NCBI GenBank assembly: GCA_035411585.1
Contig: DAONTI010000010.1
Location: 47,370 to 111,369, forward strand
Reading direction: 5' to 3'
From: Verrucomicrobiota bacterium
Lineage (GTDB): Bacteria; Verrucomicrobiota; Verrucomicrobiia; Limisphaerales; MWDV01
Length of the DNA: 64,000 bases
Position 1 is the stretch's first letter, and every line of letters begins with the position of its first letter. A model generated the notes under the pieces. It was not told the origin of the DNA and made no database searches. It worked only from the letters and a program-made list of their open reading frames with translations. The translations under genes and the position numbers were made by a program. Positions 12,829-49,582 of this stretch are shown one piece after another.

Positions 12829-12942
12829 GTCGGACACGAGCCCACCATGACGCGTCAGCACGCATCGCCACCGGCCCGTAGTTTTCGTCGCCCCACCCGC
12901 TCTTTGATGGGGCCGTTCACGCGATGGGGACCGCGGTTTTGG

Positions 12943-21063: not shown

Positions 21064-21123
21064 AATCGGAAATCAAGTGCGTTGGTTCAACGGGATGGAA
21101 ACGATGGCTGCATCCGGCGGACC

Positions 21124-28951: not shown

Positions 28952-29204
28952 CCTTCTCGGGAAGCGAGGCGTCCGGCCTCGGGCGCCTCACAGAATCGCG
29001 AACCGTAGGGCGGTTGGTTCGCGTCTCCACTCATGACCGACCGGCGATTCTCGCTCCCCCGCACCGGGCTGTGCGCCAAAGCGCAAAGGAGCGGGCGTTG
29101 GATTCAAAAAGGCCCCTTGGGGCGGTTGGGCTGGAGGGTTCCCGTCGGCCCGGATTGAATGAGGGGCGATGAAGGACGGGTGATGTTTGCTTCGGTTCTT
29201 CCAG

Positions 29205-32200
29205 ATGACAGATATGCAAAAAGTTGATTTGAGTTGCCGGCGCTTGGGCAGTCGGTGCGCAGGTAGATTTCCGCATTTTTGGGGTTGGATGATCCTGGCC
29301 GCTTTGGCGGTGGGAGGTATCCCGTCCGCCGCCCAGGCGGGGCACGGCGTGGCTGCCGGGCATTTGCGCGTTATTCAGTTGGACGTGGGCGACACCACCA
29401 ATTCGGTGCGCGTCATTCCCACCCTGCGGATCAATGATTTTCGGCTGCGCGACGGCTCGAACCGCGGCGATTACCCGGTGCAGATCGGCCTGGCGGCGGC
29501 GGACGATGTGGCGACCGGAGTCTTGATTTCTTCCGTGGCCGAGAATGGGCGCTACAACTTTGGCACGAACAATTTTCCCATCAGCGCGGTTCACGTGGGG
29601 GCGACGGATTATCGGATTTCCACGTTTGTGCGGACAGCGGCGGTCGCCGATGCGGGGGCGGAGTATAACGTCAACGTGGCGGCGGCGTGGTTTCCCTACG
29701 ACCGCTTTTGGGGCGGCACCGCCCGCAACGCCTCCGGGTTGGATGGCGGTACCAACAATTTACTGGTCGCCTCGCCGGGATTGGTTTTGGGCCACCATTT
29801 CAAAGGGGTGGCCGCCGGGCGGTCGGTGGTGGATTTGCGGAGCTTCGGCATTGACGCGCGCACGGACGGCGTGTTGCTCGTCAATGGCGGCAAGGACGAG
29901 AACAACTTCGCGCTGTCGCAGGTCAACACCAACGACGGCACCTGGAACGTGTTCGTCAAAGATAACGCGACGCCGACGGCGAGCCAGTATGAACAGGATC
30001 CGGTGGCGTTCGTGTTCATTCCCAAGACCAACACGGCGTTGATTTCCGGGCGGTTCAACGGGGATGGCAGCATTGCCCTGTTCAGCGGCGCGGCGCCGGC
30101 GTTTACGGTCAGCAACCTGGCCGCGGGCCGCTGGGACCTCCGGATTCCCGGCCATTCCCCCCGGGCGGGCATTTTGATTATTTCCGCCGAGGGGGGCGGG
30201 CATTACAACCTGGATAACATCGTCAGTTATCAAATCAACGAGGCGGGCAACGGCTGGGAAATCCAATCCCGGGACACGCCCAACAACGGCTTGCAGACGC
30301 CCGTGGGATCGGGTGGGGAACCGGAGGCGGTTTGCTCGTTTGTCTTTATTCCCGCGGCGGCGCCGTTGTTGGTGTCGCCGGCCAATGGCGCGCCGAATCA
30401 GGCGTTGCCCCAGTTGCAAACGGTGCTGTTCAACGCGGCGCCGGGGGACCTGACCGTGACGGTTTACGGCGGCGAAGCGGCCACGCCGCCGGCCGGGCCG
30501 GACTTCACGGTGGTCGTGCTGCCGGATTCGCAAAACTACACGGATGAACGCAACGGCGCGAAGAAAGAGATGTGGTTTGCCCAGTGCGAATGGATTATCA
30601 CCAACCGGCTCTCCCGCAACATCGCTTACGTCGCCCACCTGGGGGACATCAGCCAGACGGGCGACGTCAAAGGTGGTCGCCCCAATCTCGCCGAATGGCG
30701 CAATGCGACCAACGCAATGTATCGCCTGGAAAACCGGGTGCGGACCGAACTGGCCGAAGGCGTCCCCTATGGCCTGGCGGTGGGTAATCATGATCAGACC
30801 CCGCGCGGAGATCCCTTGGGGACCACGATTTTCTACAACCAATACTTTGGCATCTCCCATTTTCTGGGGCGCACCTATTACGGCGGATATTACGGCACGA
30901 ACAACAACAATCATTATGATTTGTTCAGCGCCAGCGGCTTGGATTTCATTGTGTTGTATTTCGAATACGACATGGACGCCAACCCGGCGGTGCTGGCCTG
31001 GGGCAACGAGGTCCTGCAGGCCTATGCCGACCGGCAGGCCATTGTGGTCACGCACTACATGGGCAGCGCCACGACCCCCAGCACCTTCAGCGCGCAGGGG
31101 GCCGCCATTTACAATACGCTCAAAGGCAATCCGAATCTGGCCTTGTTGCTCGGCGGCCACGTTGCTGGTCCGGGAGGCATCGGTGAAGGTTCCCGCGAGG
31201 ATCATTACGGCGGCAACACTGTTCGCACATTGATCTCGAATTATCAATTCCGCACCAACGGCGGCAACGGCATGTTGCGGCTCATGGAATTTTCGCCCAG
31301 CAACAACACGGTGGTCGTGCAGACCTATTCGCCCTGGTCGGATGAATACGAAACCGACGAGGACAGCGAGTTCTTTTTCACGCGCAACCTGCAGCCGCCG
31401 GGCGGCACGGGTTCCCCCGGCACACCGTTCACCGTGTTGACGACGCAAACAGGAGTGGCGCCCGGCAGCCTGGTGAATCTGACTTGGCCGGGGTTGCGGC
31501 CCGATCGCACCTATCAATGGTATGTCACCGTCACCGATGCAGCGGGGAATACGACCGTGGGGGAAACCTGGCGTTTTACCACCGTGCCCAACTCCCCGCC
31601 ACGGGCCAGCAACCAACTGGTGACCATTGAAGGCGACGCGCCGGCCCCCCTGACGTTGCGCGGATCGGATCCCAACGGCGACGCCATCACTTTTGGTTTG
31701 TTCGCACCGCCCTCCCAAGGGGCGATCACCGAGTTGAATACCAACGCCGGGACTTTGACTTACTATCCCGTCCGGGGCTACCGGGGCCCTGACCGGTTTA
31801 CCTACCGGGCGTATGACGGGCGCACCAACAGCAGCATCGCCACGTTCAACCTCATCATCACCGCGCCGGCGGATACCAACGCCAATGGCTTGCCGGATGC
31901 CTGGGAGGCCGCGTACGGCATCACCGATCCGGACGCCGATGACGATCGCGACGGGCACTCTAATCGCGACGAATACCGGGCCAACACCAATCCCACCAAC
32001 GCCGCTTCGGCTTTGCGGATTACCGGGATGACCCGGCAACCCGACGGACATTTTGACTTTGCGTGGGCGTCCGTGGGCGGCACCCGGTACCGGGTGCAGT
32101 TCACCGATGCGCCTGACCCCGCGGGGCTGGCGGGTGGATTCACTGATGTCGTTCGGGCCCTGACCAACGAGATGGATTTGGGGCCGTACGGAATCATGAG

Positions 32201-32288
32201 CACCCAAAGGTTTACGGATGATTTCACCCTGACCGGGGGCGCGCCCACGAATCAAAGCCGGTATTACCGGGTCCGGGTGGTGCCGTGA
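29205..32288 (+). CDS. giant secreted metallophosphoesterase: novel N-domain + calcineurin-like phosphoesterase + cadherin/Ig-like + TSP3-like Ca-binding segment + C-terminal YYRV domain
   Basis: The N-domain is paralogous to the other two giants. MPE motifs: VVVLPDSQ, HLGDIS, VGNHDQ, VVTHY, LGGHVAG. The acidic segment reads NGLPDAWEAAYGITDPDADDDRDGHSNRDEYRANTNP. The protein ends SRYYRVRVVP. ATG 29205 was chosen; TTG 29187 and ATG 29289 are alternatives. Confidence 0.9.
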   Translation: MTDMQKVDLSCRRLGSRCAGRFPHFWGWMILAALAVGGIPSAAQAGHGVAAGHLRVIQLDVGDTTNSVRVIPTLRINDFRLRDGSNRGDYPVQIGLAAADDVATGVLISSVAENGRYNFGTNNFPISAVHVGATDYRISTFVRTAAVADAGAEYNVNVAAAWFPYDRFWGGTARNASGLDGGTNNLLVASPGLVLGHHFKGVAAGRSVVDLRSFGIDARTDGVLLVNGGKDENNFALSQVNTNDGTWNVFVKDNATPTASQYEQDPVAFVFIPKTNTALISGRFNGDGSIALFSGAAPAFTVSNLAAGRWDLRIPGHSPRAGILIISAEGGGHYNLDNIVSYQINEAGNGWEIQSRDTPNNGLQTPVGSGGEPEAVCSFVFIPAAAPLLVSPANGAPNQALPQLQTVLFNAAPGDLTVTVYGGEAATPPAGPDFTVVVLPDSQNYTDERNGAKKEMWFAQCEWIITNRLSRNIAYVAHLGDISQTGDVKGGRPNLAEWRNATNAMYRLENRVRTELAEGVPYGLAVGNHDQTPRGDPLGTTIFYNQYFGISHFLGRTYYGGYYGTNNNNHYDLFSASGLDFIVLYFEYDMDANPAVLAWGNEVLQAYADRQAIVVTHYMGSATTPSTFSAQGAAIYNTLKGNPNLALLLGGHVAGPGGIGEGSREDHYGGNTVRTLISNYQFRTNGGNGMLRLMEFSPSNNTVVVQTYSPWSDEYETDEDSEFFFTRNLQPPGGTGSPGTPFTVLTTQTGVAPGSLVNLTWPGLRPDRTYQWYVTVTDAAGNTTVGETWRFTTVPNSPPRASNQLVTIEGDAPAPLTLRGSDPNGDAITFGLFAPPSQGAITELNTNAGTLTYYPVRGYRGPDRFTYRAYDGRTNSSIATFNLIITAPADTNANGLPDAWEAAYGITDPDADDDRDGHSNRDEYRANTNPTNAASALRITGMTRQPDGHFDFAWASVGGTRYRVQFTDAPDPAGLAGGFTDVVRALTNEMDLGPYGIMSTQRFTDDFTLTGGAPTNQSRYYRVRVVP

Positions 32289-32405
32289 GGCGCTGAAATA
32301 GATTGGGTGGCGGCCCCGGGTGCTGCACAGCAAACCCTTGCGCCGAATGACGCGCGACGGGACCGATGAATTTACAAGTGACAAATTAAAACTGGGAGAC
32401 AAACG

Positions 32406-33905
32406 ATGAAAACAGGCGAACCGAAGAAACGAGCAGACGCCGTGGGGGCGTTGACGGATGGCGTGTATGACGTGTTGGTGGTGGGCGGCGGCATTGTGGG
32501 CGCCGGGGTGGTGCGCGACGCGGCGCTCCGCGGGCTGAAGGTGGCGTTGGTGGAGCAGCGGGATTTTGCGTTTGGCACGAGCAGCCGGTCGAGCCGGTTG
32601 TTGCACGGCGGCTTGCGGTATCTGGCGCAAGGCCGGGTGGGCTTGGTGCATGAGGCGAGCGTGGAGAAAAAGGTGGTCCACCGCATCGCGCCGCACCTGG
32701 CGGACCCGTTGCCGTTCATCTTCCCGACCTACCGGGGCAACCGGCATTGGGTGCTTTGGCAGTTGAAGATCGGCGTCAAAATTTACGACCTGCTGTGCGG
32801 CGGACGGAATCTGGGGAAATCAACGTGGTTGAGCCGGGCGGAGGTGCTGAAGACGGTGCCGGAGTTGTCGCCGGTGAACTTGAACGGGGCGGTGCGGTAT
32901 TACGATGGCCTGACCAATGACGCGCGCCTGACCCTGGATACGCTGCGGTCGGCGGCGAAGGGCGGAGCGGTGGTGGTCAACTACTGCCGGTTTGTGGATG
33001 CGACCCGGGGGGAACACTGGACCTGCACGGTAACCGACCAATTGACGGGGCGGAACCTGACCGTGAAGACGCGGGCGGTGGTGAATGCCACCGGGCCGTG
33101 GGCGGACGGGTTGCCGCACAGCCGGGTCAAACTGCGGGCGACCAAGGGAATCCACCTGGTGGTGGACCGGGCCCGCGTGCCGGTGCCGGACACGGTGGTG
33201 ATGACGGAGGAGAAACGAATCCTGTTTGCGATTCCGTGGGGTGAACGGACGATTTTGGGCACCACCGACACGGATTACCACGGCTCACTGGACCGGGTCC
33301 TGGCGGACGCGGAGGACATCCGTTATGTGCTGGGGGTGACGAACCAGTTTTTCCCGGGCGCGAAATTGCAGGCCGGGGACGTGATCAGCGCATGGGCCGG
33401 GTTGCGGCCGTTGATCGCGGATCCGAAGGGCAAACCCTCGGACATCTCGCGCTCGCACGAGATCAAAAATCCCGAACCGGGCTGGTGGGATGTGGCCGGC
33501 GGCAAGCTGACCACGTACCGGCTGATGGCGGAGCAGACGGTGGATCGGATCGTGCGTGAGCAAAAGCTGACTGCGCGGAAATGTGTGACGGCGACGGAAG
33601 CCTTGTTGCCGGAGGCGGAGGTGCGCGAGGTGAGCGGGATTTTGCCGCCGCCCATGGACCCGGCGGCCGTGAAGCATTATTGCGCGCAGGAATGGGCGGT
33701 GCATTTGGACGATGTCTTGTTGCGCCGGACCAGTTGGCACTATTACCAGACCGACATGGAAACCCAGGCCCCCCGGGTGGCGGAATGGATGGGCGAGGAA
33801 CTGGGATGGACGGCGGAACAGCGGGCGGCGGAACTGGCGGATTACCGCGTTGCCGTCGGTTTGGTGGAACCGCCCGCGAAGGCACCGGCTGGAGGCGCAG
33901 CTTGA
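32406..33905 (+). CDS. glpD: FAD-dependent sn-glycerol-3-phosphate dehydrogenase
   Basis: YDVLVVGGGIVGAGVVRDAALRGLKVALVEQRDFAFGTSSRSSRLLHGGLRYL is the GlpD N-terminal FAD fold and signature. At 499 aa the length fits. Confidence 0.9.
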   Translation: MKTGEPKKRADAVGALTDGVYDVLVVGGGIVGAGVVRDAALRGLKVALVEQRDFAFGTSSRSSRLLHGGLRYLAQGRVGLVHEASVEKKVVHRIAPHLADPLPFIFPTYRGNRHWVLWQLKIGVKIYDLLCGGRNLGKSTWLSRAEVLKTVPELSPVNLNGAVRYYDGLTNDARLTLDTLRSAAKGGAVVVNYCRFVDATRGEHWTCTVTDQLTGRNLTVKTRAVVNATGPWADGLPHSRVKLRATKGIHLVVDRARVPVPDTVVMTEEKRILFAIPWGERTILGTTDTDYHGSLDRVLADAEDIRYVLGVTNQFFPGAKLQAGDVISAWAGLRPLIADPKGKPSDISRSHEIKNPEPGWWDVAGGKLTTYRLMAEQTVDRIVREQKLTARKCVTATEALLPEAEVREVSGILPPPMDPAAVKHYCAQEWAVHLDDVLLRRTSWHYYQTDMETQAPRVAEWMGEELGWTAEQRAAELADYRVAVGLVEPPAKAPAGGAA

Positions 33906-33944
33906 TCCGGTTGTGAACGCGCGTTTACCCCCCGAAGACTGCCT

Positions 33945-35054
33945 GTGAGTCAGACCCGAGCTTCCACGGTTTCCTTCCTGGACAACTCCGCCCCTGCGGC
34001 GGAGCGGTCGGCGCGGTCCGAACCCGGGGCGATGATCGCCCGCCCGCCCCAGCGACCTTGGACGGACATCCCGGTGCGTTACTCGGATGAACAACTGCGT
34101 CTGGCGGCGCGCTTGTATTATCTGGATGGCCTGGGGCAAACCGAGGTGGCGAAATTCGTCAAAGTGTCCCAAGCGAAAGTGTCGCGGTTGCTGGCGTTGG
34201 CGCGGGAGCGCGGCATTGTGCGCATCTCGGTGGCGGAATATGAACCGCGCAACCTGGAGCTGGAACAGCAGATCTGCCAGAGATTCGGCCTGGCCGCCGC
34301 CGCTGTTTTCAAGACCGTGCCCGAAGCCACGCCGGAGGAAGCCCGACGGGCCGTCGGCCATTTTGGCGCGGCCTTTGCCGCCTCGTTGATCGCGCCCAAC
34401 AGCGTCGTGGCCATTGCCGGCGGCCGCACGATTCGGGAGTTGGTCTTGGGATTGCCCGAGGACAAGGCGCGACAGGTCACGGTGGTGCAGGCCATGGGGA
34501 GCATTGATTCCACCGTCAGCGCGGTGGACGCGCTGGAATTGGGCCGCACCCTCGCCTGGCGGATGGGCGGTTATTTTCTGACGTTGAACACGCCGGCATT
34601 CGTGCCGGACAAACGCACGCGCGACGCGTTTCTGGCGCTCCAGCAAATCCGTTCCGTCTGGCAACGTTTGGACGCGACGGATGTGGCCTTGGTGGGGATC
34701 GGCTCCTTGGACAACTCAGTGTTCGTGGATCGCGGGGTGCTGAGCGCCAACGATCTGGGCACCCTCAAGCGTTTGGGCGCGGTGGGCGAGATTTGCGGAC
34801 ACTTTTTTGACGCGGAAGGGTGCGAGTGTGATTCGCCGTGGCGCGACCGGGTGTTGAGCGTGGATTTGAATCAAGTGCGGCGCATTCCCCATGTGGTGGG
34901 CGTGGTGGTGGGCGCGGATCGCGCCGCGGCCATCGCCGCCGCCATCCGGGGTGGGTTGGTCAAGTCCTTGATCCTGGACGATGCCGGCGCCCGCTCGCTG
35001 CTCGCGCTTCCCAACGCGGTGTCCGGGGGAAAGCCGAATGGAATCTCGAAATGA
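33945..35054 (+). CDS. SorC/DeoR-type sugar-binding transcriptional regulator
   Basis: HTH segment LRLAARLYYLDGLGQTEVAKFVKVSQAKVSRLLALARERGIVRISV, followed by a sugar-phosphate-binding domain (AIAGGRTI..., VVGVVVGADRAAAIAAAIRGGLVKSLILD). The ORF starts at a GTG; ATG 34032 is an alternative. Confidence 0.85.
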   Translation: MSQTRASTVSFLDNSAPAAERSARSEPGAMIARPPQRPWTDIPVRYSDEQLRLAARLYYLDGLGQTEVAKFVKVSQAKVSRLLALARERGIVRISVAEYEPRNLELEQQICQRFGLAAAAVFKTVPEATPEEARRAVGHFGAAFAASLIAPNSVVAIAGGRTIRELVLGLPEDKARQVTVVQAMGSIDSTVSAVDALELGRTLAWRMGGYFLTLNTPAFVPDKRTRDAFLALQQIRSVWQRLDATDVALVGIGSLDNSVFVDRGVLSANDLGTLKRLGAVGEICGHFFDAEGCECDSPWRDRVLSVDLNQVRRIPHVVGVVVGADRAAAIAAAIRGGLVKSLILDDAGARSLLALPNAVSGGKPNGISK

Positions 35055-36061
35055 AAGGCCTTGCTGCAACACCGCGTAGTCGGACGCGCCCCCAGCGCTT
35101 GGTCCGGCTGGGATGGAGTGCCGGCATGGCCGGCGCGGCCCTGTTGCTCTACGCCTGCGCGGCGCCGACCCGGTCCGCACGCCAGACATCCGGGGAATGG
35201 ACGGTGCGCGGGCATCTGCCACGCCAGCAGTTTGTGGTGCAAAGCCATCGCGGCGCCGGTTTTTTGGCACCGGAGAACACGCTTGAGGCTTTTGAATTGG
35301 GATGGAAACTGGGCGCGTGGCCGGAAGCCGACGTGCGCACGACCAAGGACGGGGTGATCGTCGCTTTCCACGATGGCAATTTCAAACGGACGGTGAAAAA
35401 TCCCCCGCCGGAATTGGCCCGGAAAGGCGTGAAGGATGTCACCTTTGCCGAATTGTCCACACTCGACGTGGGCGGTTGGAAAGGCGACGCCTTTGTGGGC
35501 CGCCGGGTTTCCCGGCTCGCGGAGATATTCCAGCTCATGACCGGCCGGCCGGAGCGCATGTTGTATCTCGACATCAAACAGGTGAACCTGGCGCAATTGG
35601 CCGCCGAGGTGCGGGCCGAACGGGTGGTCAGCCAGGTGGTATTCACCAGTCCGAATTACCCGTTGATCCGCGAGTGGAAACGGCTGGTGCCGGAATCCAA
35701 GACCTTGTGCTGGTTGCGGGGACCGGAAACCAACATGACCCATCGCCTCGCGGAAATGCGGGCGTTGAACTACGCGGATTTAACCCAGGTGCAATTGCAT
35801 CTCCGGGCCAACACCAACCGCGCGTCGAGCGAACCGTTTGACATCTCCCGCGCCTTTGTGCGCGCGACCGGCGAGGAACTTCGCCGCTACGGAGTGACCT
35901 TCCAAGTGCTGCCGTGGGACCTGGCGGCGCCGGAAATTTACTGGCAATTGATGGACCTTGGCGTGATGGCTTTCGCCACGGATTATCCCGATATTGCCCT
36001 GCAAGCCGTGCGCGACTACTACGCCGGCCGCAACCGCAGCCCTGTTGATACCCGACCATGA
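35051..36061 (+). CDS. glycerophosphodiester phosphodiesterase (GDPD family), probable lipoprotein
   Basis: ATG 35051 overlaps the regulator stop (ATGA). Possible lipobox in AALLLYAC. The GDPD signature is VQSHRGAGFLAPENTLEAFELGWKLGAWPEADVRTTKDGVIVAFHD. Confidence 0.85.
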   Translation: MKGLAATPRSRTRPQRLVRLGWSAGMAGAALLLYACAAPTRSARQTSGEWTVRGHLPRQQFVVQSHRGAGFLAPENTLEAFELGWKLGAWPEADVRTTKDGVIVAFHDGNFKRTVKNPPPELARKGVKDVTFAELSTLDVGGWKGDAFVGRRVSRLAEIFQLMTGRPERMLYLDIKQVNLAQLAAEVRAERVVSQVVFTSPNYPLIREWKRLVPESKTLCWLRGPETNMTHRLAEMRALNYADLTQVQLHLRANTNRASSEPFDISRAFVRATGEELRRYGVTFQVLPWDLAAPEIYWQLMDLGVMAFATDYPDIALQAVRDYYAGRNRSPVDTRP

Positions 36062-37422
36062 TACCGCCCCCCCGCTCCCTCACTCTCGCGGAAGCCCTGC
36101 AATCCGCCCGTGAAACCCGCGCCCTGGAAATTGGGTCGGGAATCCTCGAGCAAACCCTGCGTCTGTATCGCGACCACTTCGGCGACCGCCCGGCGATGTT
36201 GGTGGCGGACGGCAACACCTACGCCGCCGCCGGACAACGGGTGGTCGAAGCCTTCCGCAAGGCGGGCCACCCGTTGCAGGATGCCTTCATCTTCCGGGCG
36301 CCCGATTTGTACGCGGAACATCGGTTCGTGACCGAACTGGAAGCCGCCTTGCAACCGCACCAGGCCATTCCCATCGCCGTGGGGAGCGGCACGATCAACG
36401 ACCTGACCAAGCTGGCGTCGCACCGCACCGGCCGTCCGTATCTGTGTGTGGCGAGCGCCGCTTCGATGGACGGATACACCGCGTTCGGCGCTTCGATCAC
36501 GTATCAAGGCGCGAAGCAAACCTTCCTGTGCCCGGCGCCGACTGCGGTGTTGGCGGACTTGGAGGTCATCTGCGCCGCACCGGGATTGATGAACGCGTGG
36601 GGTTACACTGATTTGCTCGCCAAAGTCACGGCGGGCGCTGATTGGATCGTGGCGGACGCGCTGGGCATTGAGCCGATTGACCCGCCGGCCTGGGCGATTG
36701 TGCAAGGCCGGTTGCGAGAAATGGTGGCGGATCCCGCCGGGGTGGCGGCGCGCAATCCCGAGGCGGTGGGACGGTTGGTGGAAGGGTTGATGCTCGGCGG
36801 TTTTGGCATGCAATCCTCCCGCTCCAGCCGGCCGGCTTCCGGCGCGGAACATCAGTTCAGTCATTTGTGGGACATGCAGCATCACACCCACAACGGAAAG
36901 ACCCCTTCCCACGGCTTCAAAGTCGGCATCGGCACGCTGGCGGTGGCGGCGCTGTATGAGTATCTGTTGGCGCAACCGTTGGACCAACTGGACGCGGCCG
37001 CGTGCGGCCGGCAATGGCCCGATGCGGAAACGTGGTGCCAACGCGCGCGGGAATGGCTGGGCGAGGGGGAACTGGCCGCCGGCGCGGCGAAGGAATTGCG
37101 CGCCAAGCACAGTCCGCCGGAGGCGCTCCAGGCGCAGATGGAACAGTTGCGTTCGCTCTGGCCGGAGTTGCGCGAGCAGTTGCGCGCCCAATTGATGCCG
37201 TTGGCGACGCTGCGGGAGATGTTGCGCACCGTGGGCGCGCCCACCGCGCCGGAGGAGATCGGCATCACCCGGGAACGATTGCGGCGAAGCTACTGGCAGG
37301 CGTATTGCATCCGGCGCCGGTTCACGGCGCTGGATCTGGCGGTCCGCACCGGATTGCTGGAGGCTGCGTTGGACCACATTTTTGGTCCCGCCGGCGTCTG
37401 GCCGATTGACGCGCGCGGTTAA
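36058..37422 (+). CDS. iron-containing alcohol dehydrogenase superfamily protein, sn-glycerol-1-phosphate dehydrogenase-like (AraM/EgsA clade)
   Basis: ATG 36058 overlaps the GDPD stop (ATGA). VGSGTINDLTK (nucleotide-binding glycine motif), SMDGY and SGAEHQFSHLWDM resemble the G1PDH/Fe-ADH_2 metal-site motifs as I remember them. At 454 aa it is longer than classical EgsA. Confidence 0.6.
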   Translation: MIPPPRSLTLAEALQSARETRALEIGSGILEQTLRLYRDHFGDRPAMLVADGNTYAAAGQRVVEAFRKAGHPLQDAFIFRAPDLYAEHRFVTELEAALQPHQAIPIAVGSGTINDLTKLASHRTGRPYLCVASAASMDGYTAFGASITYQGAKQTFLCPAPTAVLADLEVICAAPGLMNAWGYTDLLAKVTAGADWIVADALGIEPIDPPAWAIVQGRLREMVADPAGVAARNPEAVGRLVEGLMLGGFGMQSSRSSRPASGAEHQFSHLWDMQHHTHNGKTPSHGFKVGIGTLAVAALYEYLLAQPLDQLDAAACGRQWPDAETWCQRAREWLGEGELAAGAAKELRAKHSPPEALQAQMEQLRSLWPELREQLRAQLMPLATLREMLRTVGAPTAPEEIGITRERLRRSYWQAYCIRRRFTALDLAVRTGLLEAALDHIFGPAGVWPIDARG

Positions 37423-37451
37423 TCTCCAGCCCATGTTGCAACCCCTTAAAT

Positions 37452-38819
37452 TTGCCGAGGTGTTTTTTGTTTAAGTCATTTCTCCAATTCTTCCTGACGG
37501 GGCCGGATGCGACCCCATTGACCGACACGGCGGAGATCCAGCGGCGCTACCGGCGCGGCCGGATTTCGGTGTTTTTATCCATCACCCTCGGCTACGCCAT
37601 GTATTATGTCGTCCGCCAGGGCTTCGCGGTGGTCAAAAAACCGCTGCTCGAGGCGGGGATCTTCGACGCCTTGCAGATCGGCAAGATCGGTTCGGTGTTT
37701 TTCCTCACCTACATGATCGGGAAGTGCGTCAACGGCTTTCTCGCCGACCGGTTGAACATCAAACGGTTTCTGGCGTTGGGGTTGCTGGCCTCCTCGACGT
37801 TGCTGGTGGTCTTGGGGTTCTGTTCCAGCTTCTATCTGTTTGCCGTGTTATGGGGGCTGTGCGGCTGGTTTCAAACCTTTGGCGCGGCACCGTGCATCGT
37901 GTCCCTGAACCAATGGTTCTCGAACAAGGAACGGGGCACTTTGTACGGCATCTGGTTTTCCGCGCACAACATCGGCACCGGCCTGACCTACATCATCACG
38001 GCCTATATCGTCGGCGCCTTTGGCTGGCAGATGGGGTTCTTCGCGCCGGGATTGCTGGGGATTACCGCGGCGGTGTTTCTGTATTTGTTCATGTATGACC
38101 GGCCCCAGGTGTACGGGTTGCCGCCGATCGCGGTGTATTCCGGCGAACAAACGCACGCCGAACACCAGGCCAAGGAAAAATCCGTGCTCCGGGCGCAATG
38201 GGCGGTCATCATCCGGCCGGCCGTCTGGATTCTAGGGTTGTCTTCCGCCGCCTGTTACATCACCCGCTATGCGTTCGAATCCTGGGGGGTTGTGTTCCTG
38301 ACCGAGGCCAAGGGATACACCTTGACCAAGGCCAGCGCCATCATCTCCATCTCCCAGTTCGCCGGCATTGCCGGGGCCATCACCTGCGGCTGGATCTCGG
38401 ATAAATTTTTTCAGCACCGCCGCAACGTGCCCTGTCTGTTATTCGGCATTTTCTTCCTGCTGTCCACGGCGACATTCGTCTATGTGCCGGCCGGTTATCC
38501 GTGGAGCGATTATGTGAGCATGGTGTTCTTTGGCTACACCGTGTACGCGTTGGTGACTTATCTGGGCGGGTTGATGGCGGTGGACATCTGTTCCAAGAAA
38601 GCCACCGGCGCCGCCATGGGGGTCATTGGTTTGTTTAGCTACGCCGGCGCGTCGCTGCAGGAAGGCGTGGGCGGTTATTTATTAAACAGCCACAAAATCA
38701 TCGGTCCGGATGGCCAAATTCTTTACGATTTCACCGCCGCCGGTCATTTTTGGGTGATCGCCTCGGCCTTTGCTCTGTTGCTTCCCTTGTTGGTCTGGAA
38801 CGCCAAACCTGAAGATTAA
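37452..38819 (+). CDS. MFS organophosphate:Pi antiporter (GlpT/UhpC family), copy 1
   Basis: EIQRRYRRGRISVFLSITLGYAMYYVVRQGF..., LADRLNIKRF, GWFQTFGAAPC and WFSNKERGT align with GlpT/UhpC landmarks. The only in-frame start upstream of the conserved N-terminus is non-ATG (TTG 37452), so the start is uncertain. Confidence 0.8.
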   Translation: MPRCFLFKSFLQFFLTGPDATPLTDTAEIQRRYRRGRISVFLSITLGYAMYYVVRQGFAVVKKPLLEAGIFDALQIGKIGSVFFLTYMIGKCVNGFLADRLNIKRFLALGLLASSTLLVVLGFCSSFYLFAVLWGLCGWFQTFGAAPCIVSLNQWFSNKERGTLYGIWFSAHNIGTGLTYIITAYIVGAFGWQMGFFAPGLLGITAAVFLYLFMYDRPQVYGLPPIAVYSGEQTHAEHQAKEKSVLRAQWAVIIRPAVWILGLSSAACYITRYAFESWGVVFLTEAKGYTLTKASAIISISQFAGIAGAITCGWISDKFFQHRRNVPCLLFGIFFLLSTATFVYVPAGYPWSDYVSMVFFGYTVYALVTYLGGLMAVDICSKKATGAAMGVIGLFSYAGASLQEGVGGYLLNSHKIIGPDGQILYDFTAAGHFWVIASAFALLLPLLVWNAKPED

Positions 38820-38843
38820 ACCAATTCCCATCCCTCTCCGTAT

Positions 38844-40223
38844 TTGAATCACATGACGCATTCGCCCGGTTCCGCTCCCGCCCCCGCCCCCCGTTTTCCC
38901 TGGCCCTTTCGTGTCTTCGAACCGGCGCCGCCCGCCCCGGTGATGCTGACCGATCCGACCGAGATCAAGCAACACTACCGCCGCTGGCAACGCCGGGTGC
39001 TCATCGCTTCGATCATCGGCTATGCCATGTTCTATTTCGTGCGCAAGAACCTCAGTATTGCGATGCCGGTGATGGAGAAGAGCCTGGGCATTACCAAGAC
39101 CGATCTGGGGTTGTTTCTCACGCTGCACGGGTTGCTCTATGGGCTGTCCAAGTTCGGCAATGGTTTTCTGGGCGACCGCTGCAATGCGCGCACGTTCATG
39201 GCGTTTGGCCTGGCGCTCTCGGCCGTCGTGAACATCTTTTTCGGATTGAGTTCCGCCGTGTTGACCCTCGGGTTGTTGTGGATGTTCAACGGCTTGGTGC
39301 AGGGCATCGGGTTTCCGCCCTGCGCCCGGTTGATGACCCACTGGTTTTCCCCCAAGGAACTGGCCACCAATTTTTCCATCTGGAACACGTCGCATTCCAT
39401 CGGAGCGGCGTTGGTGGTGGTGCTGTGCGGGTATCTGGTGAGCACGTGGGGGGATTGGCGGCTTTGTTTCTTCGTGCCCGCCGGCCTGGCCATTCTCTGT
39501 TCCATTTACCTGCTCTTTGCGTTGCCGGATACCCCGCCCTCTGTGGGGCTGCCGGAAGTGGAGGGCACCGCGCAACCGGAAGCCGGGACGAAAGGGTTTT
39601 CCACCGCGCTCCTCAAACAGGCGTTCACCAACAAATACATTTGGTTTCTCTGCCTGGCGAATTTCTTTGTCTATACCGTGCGGTATGGCGTCTTTGACTG
39701 GGGCCCGACGATGCTCACGGAAATGAAGGGGGTCAAACTCACCCACGCCGGCTGGATGGTGTTCGCCTTCGAGGGCGCCGGGGTGGTGGGCATGTTGATC
39801 AGCGGCTGGTTGACCGACCGGATTTTCGGCGGACGCGGCGCGCGGGTGTGTTTGATTTCCATGTGTCTGGCCGGCATTTCCATGCTCCTGTTCTGGAAGC
39901 TGCCGGGACAATCCATCTGGCTGGGCACGCTCCTGTTGTGCGCGGCGGGATTTTTCATTTATGGCCCGCAGGCGTTGGTGGGGACGGTGGTCGCCAATCT
40001 GGCCACCAAACAAGTGGCGGCCACCGCCATTGGTTTCACCGGGGTCTTCGCCTACGCCAGCACGTTGATCTCCGGTTGGGGACTGGGCGCGCTGGTGCAA
40101 CATTACGGTTGGGAAGCCGGGTTGGCCGGACTGACCGGGATGGCGGCCATCGGGATGATCTTGTTTGCCTTTGCCTGGCCGGCGCAGGCGCACGGTTATG
40201 GCGAAAACCATTCCGCGAAATGA
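38844..40223 (+). CDS. glpT: MFS glycerol-3-phosphate:Pi antiporter (GlpT-like), copy 2
   Basis: IIGYAMFYFVRKNLSIAMP, LGDRCNARTF, GLVQGIGFPPCARLMTHWFSPKE, FVYTVRYGVFDWGPT and GFTGVFAY match E. coli GlpT landmarks closely from memory. An alternative start is at 38943 (MLTDPTEIK). Confidence 0.8.
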   Translation: MNHMTHSPGSAPAPAPRFPWPFRVFEPAPPAPVMLTDPTEIKQHYRRWQRRVLIASIIGYAMFYFVRKNLSIAMPVMEKSLGITKTDLGLFLTLHGLLYGLSKFGNGFLGDRCNARTFMAFGLALSAVVNIFFGLSSAVLTLGLLWMFNGLVQGIGFPPCARLMTHWFSPKELATNFSIWNTSHSIGAALVVVLCGYLVSTWGDWRLCFFVPAGLAILCSIYLLFALPDTPPSVGLPEVEGTAQPEAGTKGFSTALLKQAFTNKYIWFLCLANFFVYTVRYGVFDWGPTMLTEMKGVKLTHAGWMVFAFEGAGVVGMLISGWLTDRIFGGRGARVCLISMCLAGISMLLFWKLPGQSIWLGTLLLCAAGFFIYGPQALVGTVVANLATKQVAATAIGFTGVFAYASTLISGWGLGALVQHYGWEAGLAGLTGMAAIGMILFAFAWPAQAHGYGENHSAK

Positions 40224-40270
40224 CACACGACCGCGCATGCTGTTCCCAGCAAACCTGAGGATGACGAACC

Positions 40271-40726
40271 ATGCGAATTGCCATTGATTGTGACGAGGCG
40301 GGATTGCCGCTCAAACCGGTGCTCGCGGATCATTTGCGCGCCCAGGGCGTGGCGGTGACGGATTTGAATTATCAGCAGGATCATCCGGTGGATTATCCGG
40401 ATGTCGGATATCACTTGGCCCGGCGGGTGGCGGCGGGGGAATTTGACCGGGGCATCCTGATTTGCGGCACCGGTCTGGGCATGGCGATGATTGCCAACAA
40501 AGTGCCGGGCGTCTGGGCGGGCACCTGTCACGACACCTTTTCCGCCGAGCGACTCAAGAAAAGCAACGATGCCAACGTGCTGACGCTGGGGGCGCGTGTG
40601 ATTGGGCCAGAGCTGGCCAAAACCATCGTCACCGCCTGGGTGCAATCCGAATTTGCCGGCGGTGGGTCAACGGCCAAAGTCCAGCGTCTGCGTGAACTGG
40701 AACGGACCGAATGCGGGCGGGCGTGA
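40271..40726 (+). CDS. rpiB: RpiB/LacA/LacB family sugar-phosphate isomerase
   Basis: MRIAIDCDEAG..., GILICGTGLGMAMIANKVPGVWAG and DANVLTLGARVIG are the RpiB family signatures. 151 aa. Confidence 0.85.
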   Translation: MRIAIDCDEAGLPLKPVLADHLRAQGVAVTDLNYQQDHPVDYPDVGYHLARRVAAGEFDRGILICGTGLGMAMIANKVPGVWAGTCHDTFSAERLKKSNDANVLTLGARVIGPELAKTIVTAWVQSEFAGGGSTAKVQRLRELERTECGRA

Positions 40727-40772
40727 AGCGCGGTGCCAACGCGCCTGCCTTTCCGGCCCCGGCCTTTTACCG

Positions 40773-41759
40773 ATGACAGCATTTCGCGGCTCCATTTCCG
40801 ACGCGACGCCGAAACAGCATGTCTTGGCGTCGGCGTTGCCGGGGACGGAGAAGCGGGGTCGCCCCAAGTTGCCGCATTCGCGTGGGCAAAATTGGCTTGG
40901 CGGGGTAATCGGTGGGATCCTGGGGTTGATCATCTTGAGCCCGGCAATCGGCTGGGCGCATGGGGAATTATTGATCCGCATTGACGAAGTCACGCAACGT
41001 ATCGTCGCCGCCACAAACACCCCGGAACGATTGGCCCCGCTTTACGTGGAACGCGGCGATCTGTATCGCGAAGATGAGAATTGGGAGGAGGCGGAAGCCG
41101 ATTTCAACCGGGCGGCGGCGTTGGCGCCGCATTGGGCCGCTGTGGATTTTTTCCGGGGAAAACTGCGCGCCGCCACGGACCAACTGGAGGCCGCCCGGGC
41201 GTTGTTCGACAAAGTGTTGGCCCGCGACGCCAATGACGGCGCCGCGCGGGTGGAACGGGCGCGGGTGCTCGTCCGGCTGAAGGAACTCCCGTTGGCCGAG
41301 GCGGATTTTCAACGGGGCGCCACCCTGTTGGCGGAGCCGGAACCGGAAGTATTCGTGGAATGGGCGCAGGTGTTGATAACGGAGGGCCGCACCAACGATG
41401 CCTTGCGCGCGCTGGATATGGGCATCCAAAAGCTGGGCGTGTTGCCGCCGTTGCAAACCCTGGCGCTGGATTTGGAGGTGGGTCGCCGTAATTACCCCCA
41501 GGCGTTGAAACGCTTGGAAACGCTCCATGCGCGGGCCATGCGCAAGGAAGGTTGGCAGGCGCGGCGGGGCGATATTCTCCGGGCCATGGGGCGGGACGCG
41601 GAAGCGAAGACATCGTATGCCGCCGCTTTGGTTACGATCAAAGCGCTGCCGCCGCGCATCCAACAAGGCCCGGCCATGACTGATTTGCGCGCGCGCGTTC
41701 AAGCGGCGTTGGCGGAATTGGGCGAACCGCCCGCCCACAATGCCCCGGCTCCGCCGTGA
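40773..41759 (+). CDS. membrane-anchored tetratricopeptide (TPR) repeat protein
   Basis: One TM helix (WLGGVIGGILGLIILSPAIGWA) followed by TPR-like helices (LYVERGDLYREDENWEEAEADFNRAAALAP..., ARALFDKVLARDANDGAARVERARVLVRL...). The ORF-track start at 40602 overlaps rpiB, so ATG 40773 was chosen. Confidence 0.65.
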   Translation: MTAFRGSISDATPKQHVLASALPGTEKRGRPKLPHSRGQNWLGGVIGGILGLIILSPAIGWAHGELLIRIDEVTQRIVAATNTPERLAPLYVERGDLYREDENWEEAEADFNRAAALAPHWAAVDFFRGKLRAATDQLEAARALFDKVLARDANDGAARVERARVLVRLKELPLAEADFQRGATLLAEPEPEVFVEWAQVLITEGRTNDALRALDMGIQKLGVLPPLQTLALDLEVGRRNYPQALKRLETLHARAMRKEGWQARRGDILRAMGRDAEAKTSYAAALVTIKALPPRIQQGPAMTDLRARVQAALAELGEPPAHNAPAPP

Positions 41760-41888
41760 CACCGGGAGGATGATCGTGCTTCGTCGAGCCAAGTTGTCGT
41801 CAATGAGCGAACCGGTAAGGCTGGATATTTATTTGGTCCCCTCAATTGACGGAGGGCGCGCGATGCCTTAACCAGTTTATTTGCGGAT

Positions 41889-44800
41889 ATGAAGTGCGTT
41901 TCAAGCTTGGAGCAAACGGCGGCTGGCCGGGCCGCCGGGTTTTTGTTTTTCCGACCGGGAAGATCTCGAGGATGGCTGGCGGCCATGATAGCGGCGGCGC
42001 TCAGCTTTTCTCCCCAGGCCGTCGCCGAGCCGGTTCATCATGGCGTGGCGGCCGGGCGGCTGGTGGTTTCCCAGGTACCGGGCTTGGATGATAACACCAA
42101 CGCCGTCGTCACCCTGGCGCAATCCATCAACAATTTCCAAATCGGCAGTTACAACCGGGGCGATTACGCTGTGCGCATCGGCGTGGGGATGCTGGCTGCG
42201 GAGGACAGCGCCCGCGGGGTTTTGATGGCGTCGGTGGCCGAGAACGGACGGAATAACTTCGGGACCAACGGTTATCCGACCTGTTCCATGGAAGGGAATT
42301 CGGCCGGCGCGTTGCGGATCTCAACCGCGTTGGGCGGCAGCGGCGGGGAATACAACGTCAATGTCGCCGGAGCGTGGTTTCCTTATGACCGCTATCTGGC
42401 CGGTTGGGCGCGCAACGCGAACGCCATCAATGGCGGGACCAATGACCTGCTCACCGCGTCGCCCGGAATCGTGTTGGGCACGCATTTTCGAGGCGTGGCG
42501 AGTGGCCGGTCGGTGGTGGATTTGCGGAGTTTCGGCGTGGATGCGCGCCAGGACGGAGTCTTGTTGGTGACGCATGGGAAGGACGAAGGCAATTTTGCGC
42601 TCTCGCAGGTCAACCCCGTGAATGGGACCTGGAATGTTTTTGTCCGCGACAACGCCCAAGCCACATACAGCAAATACGAGCAGGATCCGGTCGCGTTTGT
42701 GTTCATTCCCAAAACCAATGCCGCGCTCATTTCCGGCCGCTTCAACGGCGACGGCAGCATTGACCTGTTCAGCGGCGTGAGCCCGCGGTTCTCGGTCACC
42801 AACATCGGGACGGGCCGCTGGCTCTTGCGGATGCGGGGCTACACGCCGGCTGAGGGTGTGCTGATCATCTCGGCCGAGGGCGGCGGCAGTCTGAACGGCG
42901 ACAACGTCGTCAGCTACGAGATCACGCCGGACGGGGAGGCGTGGGAAATCCAATCGCGCGACACCCCGGGCATGGGCTTGCAAACTCCGGTGGGTGCGGC
43001 GGGACAACCGGAGGCGGTGGCTTCGTTTGTCTTTATTCCCGCGCCGACTCCCGGAGTGACCGTGACGCCCACCAACAACCTGGTGACCCGGGGCGATGGC
43101 GGCACGGCGACGTTCGCCGTGGTGTTGCATTCGTCGCCGGCCACCAATGTTCACATTCAACTGACATCGAGCGATCCCGCGTTGGGCCGGCCGACCCCGG
43201 CGACGCTGACGTTCCGCTCCACCGATTGGCATTTGCCCCAAACCGTCACCGTCACGGGCGGGGACGCGCTCACGCCCGGCGCGGTGCCGTACCATATTTT
43301 ATTATCGCCGGCAGCCAGCGGGGATGCGGCCTATCGGGGATTGAAACCGGAGGATGTCGCCGTGGTTTATCTTCCCGCGCCGGTGGCGGTGATTACGCCT
43401 CCCCCCGGCGCGCTGAATATCAGTCCTTCGCCCATGCTGACCGTGGTGGCCACCAATCCCGCGCCCGAGGCTCTGACGGTGACGTTTTATGGGCGGGAAG
43501 TGACGGAGACCTTCCCTGGCCCGGATTTCTGCATCGTCGCTTTGCCGGACACGCAAGTTTACGTGGCGGAAAAACGGGGGGCGAAGAAAGAGATGTTCAT
43601 CGCCCAGACGGAATGGATTGTCACCAACCGGATCGCGCGCAATATCGCCTACGTCGCCCAGTTGGGGGATATCGTGAACGACGGTGATATTTATCAGGGC
43701 CAGCCCAATCTCACGCAGTGGCGCAATGCGACGAATGCCATGTATCGCCTTGAGAATCCCGTGCGCACCCTCCTGACCCACGGCATTCCCTATGGCGTGG
43801 CGGTGGGAAACCACGAACAACAGCCGCGCGGCGACCCCACCGGCACCACCTATTTTTACAATCTCTTTTTCGGCCTGCCGCATTTCAGCGGACGGCCGTA
43901 CCACGCCGGGCATTACGGGACCAACAACAACAATCACTTCGATTTTTTCAGCGCCAGCGGCTTGGATTTTGTGGTCCTGTATTTCGAGTACGACCAGGGC
44001 GCGAATCCCGCCGTGCTGGCTTGGGGGAGCGAGGTGCTCCGCACCAACGCCCATCGCCGCGCCATTGTGGTAACCCATCATGTGGGCAATTCCCAGACCC
44101 CCAGCAGCTTCAGCCTGCAGGGCAGCGCGATCTATAACGCGCTCAAGGGCCACACCAACCTGTTTCTCATGCTGGGCGGGCACATCACCGGCCAGGGCTC
44201 GCGGCAGGACATCCACAACGGCAATATCGTGCGCTCGCTGGTGGCGGATTACCAGGGGTGGGCCAACGGTGGCAACGGGTTCATGCGGATCATGGAATTC
44301 TCGCCCAGCAACAATCTGGTGGTCGTGCAAACCTATTCCCCGTGGACCAAAGAATACCTGACCGACGAACACAGCGAGTTTTGGTTCGATTACCCGATGC
44401 AGCCGGCGGGGACGGGTCCGGCGGGCACGGCTTTTGTCCCGCTGGGTACGAACACGAATGTGACGCCGGGCAGCCGGACCAGCCTCGCCTGGCCCAGTCG
44501 GCGCCCCAATCAGAATTACGAGTGGTTTGTGACGGTCACCGATGCCGCCCAGAACACTTGGACGAGCCGTCTCTGGAGGTTCACCACCACCGTGACGAAT
44601 ACGCCGCCGGTGTTGACGAACCGCAGCCTGACCCTCCAGGGGGACACGCCGACCCGTTTGCTGTTTCAGGCGATGGATGTGAATCAGGACCCACTCACGT
44701 ACCACGTGATCGTCGCCCCCACGCGGGGTTTGATGCAGGATTTTGATCCGGTGACGGGGTCGTTTCTCTATGTGCCCGCGCGCGGCTTTCGCGGGATGGA

Positions 44801-49259: not shown

Positions 49260-49582
49260 TTCCCGGTGCGCATCGCCGCGTCCCGGCAACGTCACCAAAG
49301 TCGTCCGTAGCATAGGGGAGGCGTCCACCCAAAGCAAGCGGCGCGGGTTGTCGTAAGCCAGACGGACGGTCACCGACGAAAGGTTGGGCCGGGAAGCCGC
49401 ATTTGGCGGCTCCAGACGGGGCAAATGCCGGCTGCGCAGCCGCGGCTTGACTTGTCGGTGGGGGCAACTCTTAATGCTCCCGCGCGCGGCGGGTTGGATT
49501 GCGTTTGGTCCCGTCGCCACCCAGTGATGAAGCGAATTTGCATTGAAACATCAGCTCTCCCCATCCCGGGCCGCTCACTGCC

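Follow-up and report, generated by a model that had tools for sequence, protein, structure and literature searches.

The window analysed here is a 64,000-nucleotide stretch of DNA from a Verrucomicrobiota bacterium (NCBI GenBank assembly GCA_035411585.1, contig DAONTI010000010.1, positions 47,370 to 111,369 of the forward strand), and it carries at 32406-40726 a cluster of seven genes, the fourth of which encodes a 454-aa dehydrogenase. This enzyme belongs to the sn-glycerol-1-phosphate (G1P) dehydrogenase clade of AraM and EgsA, not to the GldA or DHQS clades, and within it represents a distinct, tightly conserved long-form subfamily that is found in at least six phyla and is not a plain AraM orthologue. 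Since the long-form gene is linked across phyla to genes for GDPD, GlpT-like antiporters, GlpD and sugar-phosphate regulators, and is in some genomes fused to GDPD, its role would be catabolic rather than lipid-biosynthetic. The reading of the whole cluster as an operon for the catabolism of both G1P and its mirror form, sn-glycerol-3-phosphate (G3P), is in our judgement evenly balanced between acceptance and doubt. The genes and their two overlaps are as follows.

32406..33905, + strand: GlpD-like FAD-dependent glycerol-3-phosphate dehydrogenase/oxidase homologue, first gene, 499 aa (Pfam DAO and DAO_C)
33945..35054, + strand: SorC-family transcriptional regulator with helix-turn-helix and sugar-phosphate-binding domain, 369 aa from GTG, alternative ATG at 34032 (Pfam Sugar-bind)
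35051..35054, + strand: ATGA stop/start overlap of the SorC and GDPD genes, read in the sequence
35051..36061, + strand: GDPD family enzyme with N-terminal signal and possible lipobox, 336 aa (Pfam GDPD)
36058..36061, + strand: ATGA stop/start overlap of the GDPD and dehydrogenase genes, read in the sequence
36058..37422, + strand: long-form AraM/EgsA-clade dehydrogenase, 454 aa (Pfam Fe-ADH_2)
37452..38819, + strand: OPA antiporter 1, a divergent paralogue, 455 aa (Pfam MFS_1)
38844..40223, + strand: OPA antiporter 2, GlpT-like, 459 aa, with an ATG at 38853 (Pfam MFS_1)
40271..40726, + strand: RpiB/LacAB-family isomerase of DerI-like short-chain type, 151 aa (Pfam LacAB_rpiB)

The list of open reading frames (ORFs) gives all seven on the + strand at the coordinates of the initial annotation, which had been made from the DNA letters alone, and its gene order and both overlaps are borne out; the remaining gaps within the cluster are, in gene order, 39, 29, 24 and 47 bp. 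At the level of families Pfam and NCBIfam agree with the labels it had given, although two of these, GlpT and rpiB, proved too specific, as the GlpT equivalog cut-offs are missed and residues of canonical ribose-5-phosphate isomerase are missing. The locus would be a soil or freshwater-type verrucomicrobial operon. Co-transcription of the seven genes is plausible; a scan of 32000-42000 for terminator and promoter consensus sequences yielded no more sites than shuffled sequence did and thus says nothing on operon structure.

The long-form dehydrogenase

The dehydrogenase matches Pfam PF13685 (Fe-ADH_2) with 105 bits, and its best NCBIfam model is that of G1P dehydrogenase (G1PDH). A sequence search of the PDB returned first AraM (9h4x; 1.4e-41), named via Foldseek as the Ni2+-dependent sn-glycerol-1-phosphate dehydrogenase of Bacillus subtilis, then archaeal G1PDH (1.9e-21) and, at about 1e-5, the glycerol dehydrogenases (GldA). 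The same order was obtained with a family profile built from 19 diverse full-length long-form relatives, which gave 280 bits to AraM, 153-157 to archaeal G1PDH (EgsA) and 147 to 3ce9. GldA reached at most 87 bits and DHQS at most 39, and by these scores assignment as a GldA-like glycerol dehydrogenase or a DHQS-like cyclase is ruled out. The AlphaFold2 (AF2) model of the protein (pLDDT 94.2) likewise retrieved AraM 9h4x as the top Foldseek match (E 4.9e-22, target-normalised TM 0.84), followed by 3ce9 and Methanocaldococcus jannaschii G1PDH. The initial annotation had called the product of 36058..37422 G1PDH-like and had proposed to place it among the EgsA, AraM, GldA and DHQS clades; with AraM best in sequence, profile and structure comparison, that identity stands and the placement falls in the G1PDH clade, nearest to AraM.

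Eight residues (D185, H265, H285, R258, S261, G262, R419 and R421) are invariant in the 19 diverse long-form sequences, and each has an identical counterpart in AraM and M. jannaschii G1PDH; from homology to GldA and G1PDH structures we take D185, H265 and H285 to be the metal ligands. The motifs GSG..D, TAxSxDG, SRPASGxEH and RxR are also invariant and are common to AraM and archaeal G1PDH, with which the protein has a core identity of 34% and 30%, respectively. Among each other, long-form proteins of six phyla are 54-85% identical in the core, and a neighbour-joining tree, built with no GldA or DHQS outgroup, unites them in a single clade that groups with AraM, the archaeal G1PDHs and 3ce9. 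The closest homologues (67-75% identity) come from Verrucomicrobiota metagenome bins and are named 'sn-glycerol-1-phosphate dehydrogenase' in the source. The long-form family comprises 952 clusters at 50% identity (E < 1e-30), and at least 591 long-form loci were confirmed in a set of species-representative genomes. By homology the enzyme would be expected to act stereospecifically on G1P.

Conserved neighbourhoods across phyla

For the neighbourhood of the long-form gene we turned to 80 genomes (L006-L085), all of different species and belonging to Verrucomicrobiota, Bacteroidota, Planctomycetota, Acidobacteriota, Chloroflexota and Actinomycetota; genes lying within 5 kb of it were sorted into clusters and annotated. 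The counts below are lower bounds, as many loci end at contig borders.

OPA antiporter: 30/80 loci
HAD-IIA phosphatase (Hydrolase_6 and Hydrolase_like, AraL type): 29/80 loci
GDPD: 20/80 loci
FGGY kinase: 16/80 loci
GlpD: 15/80 loci, in three phyla
SorC: 13/80 loci
DeoR (GlpR-like) regulator: 11/80 loci
RpiB-like: 10/80 loci
another MFS protein: 9/80 loci
GpsA-like NAD-G3P dehydrogenase: 4/80 loci

In five loci of close relatives SorC, the dehydrogenase, one or two OPA antiporters and the RpiB-like gene make up the conserved core, with GDPD as an optional member, and a SorC gene precedes the dehydrogenase in L001-L006 as well as in other loci. Two contexts can be told apart among the wider set. 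The first, Glp-like and found in Verrucomicrobiota, Planctomycetota, Bacteroidota and Acidobacteriota, combines a regulator, GDPD, the dehydrogenase and OPA, often with HAD-IIA and often with GlpD. The second is the kinase context of Actinomycetota, with an FGGY kinase in 8/9 loci, an RpiB-like gene in 7/9, HAD-IIA in 5/9 and a GpsA-like gene in 4/9, and with neither OPA nor GDPD. In these four actinobacterial loci the end of the gene for the GpsA-like NAD-G3P dehydrogenase overlaps the start of the long-form gene, which argues for a link to G3P metabolism.

The dehydrogenase is also found fused to its neighbours. GDPD::dehydrogenase fusions make up four 50%-identity clusters (P0122, P0126, P0128 and P0135); the GDPD part of P0122 and the window GDPD have 43% identity over the whole domain, and the P0126 locus (L090) reads DeoR, GDPD::dehydrogenase, GDPD, HAD-IIA, GDPD. 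One further cluster, P0124, is an RpiB::dehydrogenase fusion, encoded by a stand-alone gene and present with the same sequence on an NCBI metagenome-assembled genome and on a JGI contig. DUF1667::dehydrogenase (P0137) and dehydrogenase::SorC (P0188), one cluster each, may be gene-calling merges. On the NCBIfam G1PDH equivalog model (NF002022) the fusions P0124, P0137 and P0150 score 149-166. The last of these, a cytidylyltransferase-like::dehydrogenase fusion, was considered as TagD-like, which would imply a glycerol-phosphate product; NCBIfam identifies its N-terminal domain as NadD-like, and it is uninformative.

Several side observations concern the same loci. AraL-like HAD-IIA genes stand beside the long-form dehydrogenase in five phyla, with a frequency like that of the antiporter, and by their presence in 29/80 loci the pairing of AraL with AraM, familiar from the arabinose operon of B. 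subtilis, is ancient and widespread. A twelve-gene polyol/DHAP (dihydroxyacetone phosphate) cluster is carried by plasmid 2 of a cultured strain, Rubrobacter radiotolerans (L088, NZ_CP007516.1 60.8-81.2 kb), in the order FGGY, 2-hydroxyacid dehydrogenase, FGGY, Zn-dependent alcohol dehydrogenase (Zn-ADH), dihydroxyacetone-kinase-family protein, HAD-IIA, 'sn-glycerol-1-phosphate dehydrogenase', rpiB, FGGY, GpsA-like, GlpD. Other cultured carriers of the long-form gene are Opitutaceae bacterium EW11 (L010), Gaoshiqia hydrogeniformans (L021) and Pedobacter chitinilyticus (L024). Tandem long-form duplicates occur in Bacteroides sp. CAG:709 and Apibacter muscae (L049 9983-12987; L053 9989-12887), and those of Apibacter are followed by an FGGY kinase, HAD-IIA, an AraD-like epimerase and a second FGGY kinase, an arrangement like that of an ara operon. 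Finally, a contig labelled 'uncultured Bifidobacteriaceae' (L006, CAYWCK010000352.1) carries a SorC-GDPD-dehydrogenase-RpiB-like cluster 71% identical to that of the window and is probably mis-binned.

Uptake, hydrolysis and regulation genes

The GlpD-like protein has both expected domains (Pfam DAO, 178 bits, and DAO_C), and its best PDB matches are all G3P dehydrogenases or oxidases, namely 3da1 (291 bits), GlpO 2rgh and E. coli GlpD 2qcu; on the NCBIfam G3P dehydrogenase model PRK12266 it scores 319.7 against a cut-off of 360, and its specificity may be EryB-like. The regulator matches Pfam Sugar-bind with 206 bits and stays below the cut-offs of the DeoR/LsrR-type NCBIfam models.

The GDPD contains a full-length domain (Pfam GDPD, 79 bits) with the catalytic motifs HRG..E.D..HD; solved GDPDs are but distant relatives of it (61 bits). 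Its N-terminus combines positive charge, a hydrophobic stretch and a Cys (..AALLLYAC..), which is consistent with a lipoprotein-type signal and agrees with the earlier label of a GDPD lipoprotein; the enzyme is probably exported and lipid-anchored. Signal or lipoprotein peptides are present on most GDPDs that adjoin long-form genes and on none of the fused ones.

Both antiporters have E. coli GlpT (1pw4) as their best match in the PDB, antiporter 1 with 217 bits and antiporter 2 with 269 bits, and they are 31% identical to each other. Equivalents of R45, K80, H165 and R269 are kept in antiporter 1, together with the changes K46Q and N162F, while antiporter 2 keeps these four as well as Y38, Y42, Y76, N162 and Y266. 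On the GlpT equivalog TIGR00712 they score 252 and 316, respectively, against a cut-off of 633. Neither reaches the cut-off of any NCBIfam equivalog, and the models for GlpT, UhpC and the PgtP subfamily give nearly the same scores (approximately 250-258 bits for antiporter 1). Thus, of the two GlpT paralogs described in the initial annotation, the OPA family and the GlpT substrate-site residues hold, whereas the GlpT name itself falls short of the cut-offs. Antiporter 2 is the best match for 37 of 38 neighbouring OPA genes, so that this type is conserved beside the dehydrogenase in other phyla, and second OPA genes recur in several loci. The substrates of the two antiporters are presumed ones, and a division of G1P and G3P between them would be conjecture.

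An atypical RpiB-family isomerase

The last gene had been labelled rpiB, and the earlier model left it unexplained. Its product is an RpiB-family protein (Pfam LacAB_rpiB, 168 bits; NCBIfam RpiB subfamily, 166.4 against a cut-off of 135) in which the catalytic CGTG (ICGTGLG) is kept. Compared with the E. coli (1nn4) and Clostridium thermocellum (3he8) proteins, His10 is replaced by Glu, the ring-opening His99 by Ser and the phosphate-site GGRH..R by GGGS..K, so that neither the ring-opening His (E. coli H99) nor the phosphate site formed by His10, Arg133, His134 and Arg137 is present; the roles of His99 and of the phosphate-site residues are as described for the Coccidioides immitis structure (PMC3212906). 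A housekeeping RpiB is thereby ruled out for this gene.

The window protein has instead the sequence CHDTFSAER, part of a signature composed of HDxxSAER, SN[ND] and the loss of His10 and His99. This DerI-type signature is found in all RpiB-family genes that adjoin long-form dehydrogenases, with the exception of one Chloroflexota locus (L047) that keeps His10, and it also occurs in DerI of Rhizobium etli p42f, in the Rubrobacter neighbour and in C. immitis 3qd5. For the last of these, the structure paper points out that the ring-opening His and the basic phosphate site are lost and proposes a substrate of shorter chain (PMC3212906). The R. etli gene adjoins a TIM-like gene, a four-carbon acid-sugar kinase and OiaX. 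On the NCBIfam DerI equivalog NF051858 (cut-off 240) only the R. etli protein passes (257.9), with the Rubrobacter neighbour at 186.1 and the window protein at 158.8. As the latter value compares with 166.4 on the general RpiB model, we call the window protein DerI-like and not DerI; by the residues of its active site it resembles short-chain sugar-phosphate isomerases.

Proposed pathway

The favoured reading is that of a SorC-regulated catabolic operon for glycerol phosphates set free from glycerophosphodiesters in the environment, for instance deacylated phosphatidylglycerol, fragments of lipoteichoic acid and the head groups of archaeal lipids. The diesters would first be cleaved outside the cytoplasm by the exported, probably lipid-anchored GDPD, and the glycerol phosphates so released would be imported by one or both GlpT-like OPA antiporters in exchange for phosphate. 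In the cytoplasm the FAD enzyme GlpD would convert G3P to DHAP, and the long-form AraM-like dehydrogenase, dependent on a metal and NAD(P), would convert G1P to DHAP, so that both mirror forms could reach glycolysis. The DerI-like isomerase has no explained role in this scheme; possible tasks are the interconversion of DHAP with glyceraldehyde-3-phosphate and the handling of a four-carbon side substrate. The identity and stereochemistry of the substrates, the direction of the reaction, the specificity of the transporters and co-transcription are what we infer.

G1P as substrate is favoured because the enzyme falls in the G1PDH clade with the full set of metal and phosphate motifs, because nearly all recurrent neighbour families (GDPD, GlpT, GlpD, GpsA, GlpR-type DeoR, dihydroxyacetone kinase) have classical members that act in glycerol phosphate or DHAP metabolism, and because substrates that yield G1P are abundant. 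The head-group glycerol of phosphatidylglycerol is in sn-1 linkage, and archaeal lipids are based on G1P. Lipoteichoic acid is described as a poly(sn-Gro1P) polymer that is not degraded by the stereospecific GlpQ (PMC7086022). Growth on G1P as sole carbon source was reported for Phaeobacter, for which transporters were identified and no intracellular enzyme was named; the table of proteins regulated on G1P in that study lists no G1P dehydrogenase (PMC12718374). In the literature searched, bacterial G1PDH is treated as biosynthetic only, also in recent papers (PMC13400652; PMC6431249), and no paper naming a bacterial catabolic G1P enzyme was found there. This agrees with the initial annotation, to which a catabolic bacterial G1PDH was not known as an established pathway. 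Its wider claim, that the cluster serves the catabolism of both enantiomers, is partly supported: it gains from the G1PDH clade, the linkage with GDPD, GlpT-like and GlpD genes and the fusions, and loses by the unexplained DerI-like gene and by the position of GlpD in close relatives.

These last two belong to a series of observations that weigh against catabolism of the two glycerol phosphates. The DerI-like isomerase is adjacent to the dehydrogenase in Verrucomicrobiota, Chloroflexota and Actinomycetota and fused to it in P0124, though DHAP needs no isomerase, and GlpD is not adjacent in the five close-relative loci. The enzyme itself departs from AraM: an insertion of about 50 residues with an invariant Lys (K350) is conserved in the long-form proteins and absent in AraM, the core identity to AraM is only 34%, the NCBIfam G1PDH equivalog NF002022 is not passed (155 bits against a cut-off of 413), and no characterised long-form member was found in the literature searched. 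The AraL-type HAD-IIA partner has no assigned place in the scheme and is absent from the window cluster. Moreover, the kinase context lacks OPA and GDPD and includes, in some actinobacterial loci, a transketolase or a dihydroxyacetone-kinase-family protein; the entry step in Actinobacteria seems to be a kinase acting on a free polyol.

Alternative explanations

The isomerase and the kinases would be accommodated by a route for four-carbon (or longer) polyol phosphates, which we regard as unlikely overall. The long-form enzyme would here oxidise an imported or kinase-made tetritol phosphate to erythrulose phosphate, and the DerI-like isomerase would convert it to D-erythrose-4-phosphate for the pentose-phosphate pathway. 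The substrate would be erythritol or threitol phosphate of the D, 'sn-1-like', configuration next to CH2OP, and the GlpD-like protein would correspond to EryB, SorC (or DeoR) to EryD (or EryR), FGGY to EryA and the RpiB-like protein to EryI, all parts of the Brucella erythritol pathway. Stereochemistry would be compatible with such a route, as G1P is D-glycerol-3-phosphate, whose configuration next to CH2OP matches that of D-erythrulose-4-phosphate and D-erythrose-4-phosphate. In its favour, the RpiB-family neighbours of long-form genes carry the same signature as R. etli DerI, and a shorter-chain substrate was suggested for proteins of this type by the authors of the C. immitis structure (PMC3212906). 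The RpiB::dehydrogenase fusion stands alone in its locus, and while a triose isomerase would be redundant with TIM, an erythrulose-4-phosphate isomerase would not; in actinobacterial loci FGGY kinases (8/9) go together with the DerI-like isomerase (7/9), and the Rubrobacter plasmid adds a Zn-ADH, a DAK-family kinase and GlpD.

The four-carbon route leaves much of the Glp-like context unaccounted for, however. There is no known tetritol counterpart for the GDPD (20/80 loci, and the fusions), the GlpT-like antiporters (30/80) or the GpsA-like genes, and we are aware of no plentiful source of tetritol phosphates, or of their diesters, in the environment. In most OPA/GDPD loci a DerI-like gene is missing within 10 kb, the window isomerase stays under the DerI equivalog cut-off (158.8 against 240), the cluster has no homologue of EryA, EryC or TpiA2, and the metal and phosphate motifs of the dehydrogenase are identical to those of true G1PDHs. 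A possibility that would unify the two is a dehydrogenase for D-configured polyol 1-phosphates that takes both three-carbon and four-carbon substrates.

Anabolic supply of G1P, in which reduction of DHAP would provide the G1P needed in an ether lipid of archaeal type or in a G1P-containing polymer and the glp-like position would reflect shared regulation by glycerol-phosphate availability only, is quite improbable. The reaction (EC 1.1.1.261) is reversible, and the AraL-like HAD-IIA/AraM-like pairing is kept in 29/80 loci. The sole characterised bacterial homologue, AraM, is biosynthetic (Guldan 2008, cited in PMC13400652 and PMC5059525). Nevertheless, the long-form gene keeps company with an exported hydrolase, with importers and with an oxidative GlpD, its fusion to a degradative GDPD is hard to square with synthesis, and no prenyltransferase (PcrB/GGGPS-like) was found among the Pfam-scanned ORFs of the window, which are a part of its ORFs, or among the recurrent neighbour families.

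That the RpiB-family gene, and possibly glpD, are adjacent by chance, with a functional unit of SorC, GDPD, dehydrogenase and OPA only, has little to recommend it. It would explain why GlpD is not in the neighbourhood of the five close-relative loci and why the RpiB-like gene is absent from the loci of Opitutaceae, Bacteroidota and Planctomycetota, but an RpiB-like neighbour recurs in three phyla and as a fusion, GlpD is found in 15/80 loci from three phyla, and no gap within the window cluster exceeds 47 bp. Least probable of all is action on the unphosphorylated alcohol that GDPD frees, e.g., glycerol from glycerophosphoglycerol that a glycerol dehydrogenase would turn into dihydroxyacetone: the enzyme shares the superfamily of GldA, but its profile gives 280 bits on the G1PDH side against at most 87 for GldA, it keeps SRPxSGxEH and RxR, common to the aligned G1PDHs, the exported GDPD would free the alcohol outside the cell, and the cluster has no dihydroxyacetone kinase.

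Comparison with known systems

The window dehydrogenase shares with AraM (9h4x) and EgsA/G1PDH (4rgq, 5fb3) the fold, the metal-ligand triad and the motifs GSG..D, TAxSxDG, SRPxSGxEH and RxR, and the HAD-IIA neighbour araL of B. subtilis has its counterpart in 29/80 long-form loci. It differs from them in being about 60 residues longer, in the insertion with its invariant Lys and in belonging to a separate monophyletic clade, and its context is one of uptake and degradation (GDPD, OPA, GlpD), whereas that of AraM is the ara operon and the PcrB lipid pathway.

With the E. coli glp regulon (glpT-glpQ, glpD, GlpR) the cluster has in common an exported glycerophosphodiesterase, a GlpT-type antiporter, an FAD-dependent GlpD and a regulator that senses a sugar phosphate. 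Unlike in E. coli, the genes stand in one operon, the regulator is SorC and not DeoR/GlpR, there are two antiporter paralogues (31% identity), the GDPD is distant from both GlpQ and UgpQ, and neither the G1PDH-like enzyme nor the DerI-like isomerase has an equivalent in the E. coli system. The ery pathways of Brucella and Rhizobium and the threitol/erythritol pathways of Mycobacterium resemble the cluster in the GlpD-like dehydrogenase, the SorC regulator and the DerI-type isomerase signature. The EryA kinase, the EryC racemase and the TpiA2/LerI (EryH) isomerase are missing from the window, which has GDPD, OPA antiporters and a G1PDH-like enzyme instead; as judged by Pfam and NCBIfam, the FGGY, xylose-isomerase-like and TIM families have no member among the seven genes, so the gene content is not that of a Brucella-type erythritol operon. 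The GpxB/UgpB transporters for G1P and G3P of marine bacteria serve the same task, the use of G1P as carbon source (PMC12718374), but are unrelated ABC binding-protein systems, whereas the window combines MFS antiporters with a candidate G1P-oxidising enzyme.

All families of the cluster are already known, and databases name the protein G1P dehydrogenase. The long-form clade, its cross-phylum uptake and degradation operons, the GDPD and isomerase fusions and the DerI-like partner appear to be undescribed in the literature searched. With somewhat less than even confidence, we would venture that long-form AraM-like proteins are mainly catabolic. They would be joined by exported GDPDs and GlpT-like antiporters, and in some lineages by a DerI-like isomerase, to constitute the missing bacterial system for recycling sn-1-configured polyol phosphates, parallel to that of GlpD for the sn-3 form. 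Its main substrate would be the G1P of archaeal lipids, of lipoteichoic acid and of the head groups of phosphatidylglycerol, possibly with four-carbon analogues beside it.

Every archaeal lipid, and lipoteichoic acid too, is built on a backbone of G1P, which thus represents a large pool of carbon and phosphorus. A 2025 study described growth on G1P and its transporters and no enzyme that leads into central metabolism (PMC12718374), for which the window locus and its relatives offer a candidate. In the debate on the lipid divide, bacterial G1PDH homologues have been read as lipid-biosynthetic and used to infer what membrane the last universal common ancestor had (PMC5059525; PMC6431249; PMC13400652); if most of them were catabolic, that inference would weaken. 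The DerI-like isomerase and the pairing of AraL and AraM types further suggest that araL and araM in the arabinose operon of B. subtilis reflect a wider, undescribed metabolic module.

Surrounding genes

No HAD-IIA, FGGY kinase, TIM or prenyltransferase gene is present among the window ORFs scanned with Pfam, which are part of the total. At 20071-22224 on the - strand a PfkB-family sugar kinase (ribokinase-like, 330 aa) adjoins a ureide-permease-like membrane protein, and no link from these to the glycerol-phosphate cluster was found. Three adjoining genes at 11764-15728 (+ strand) encode two NAGPA (PF09992) phosphodiester glycosidase proteins (354 aa and 688 aa) and a 301-aa protein of the endonuclease/exonuclease/phosphatase family, which suggests that the organism attacks phosphodiester-linked glycopolymers (such as teichoic-acid-like or phosphoglycan material); such an activity would fit a glycerol-phosphate salvage operon approximately 17 kb away.

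The operon is flanked on the + strand by two visibly paralogous secreted proteins of 1,033 aa (29187-32288) and 1,135 aa (41889-45296), in which Big_9/cadherin-like domains are the only Pfam matches and the C-terminal region is TSP3-like, and a TPR protein lies at approximately 40602-41759. A GNHD/GNHE metallophosphoesterase-like motif was seen in the flanking proteins by eye only and is unconfirmed, with no Pfam phosphoesterase match. Large Big_9 proteins and a TPR protein are likewise located upstream of the orthologous operon in two related loci (L002 and L003). Several proteins with prepilin-type N-terminal methylation motifs, one of them with DUF1559, are encoded at 9812-10570, 23803-24657 and 48435-49520, and they lie among glycoside hydrolases (GH123, GH127, GH2 and GH141-like) and a sulfatase, a setting typical of polysaccharide-degrading Verrucomicrobiota and Planctomycetota.

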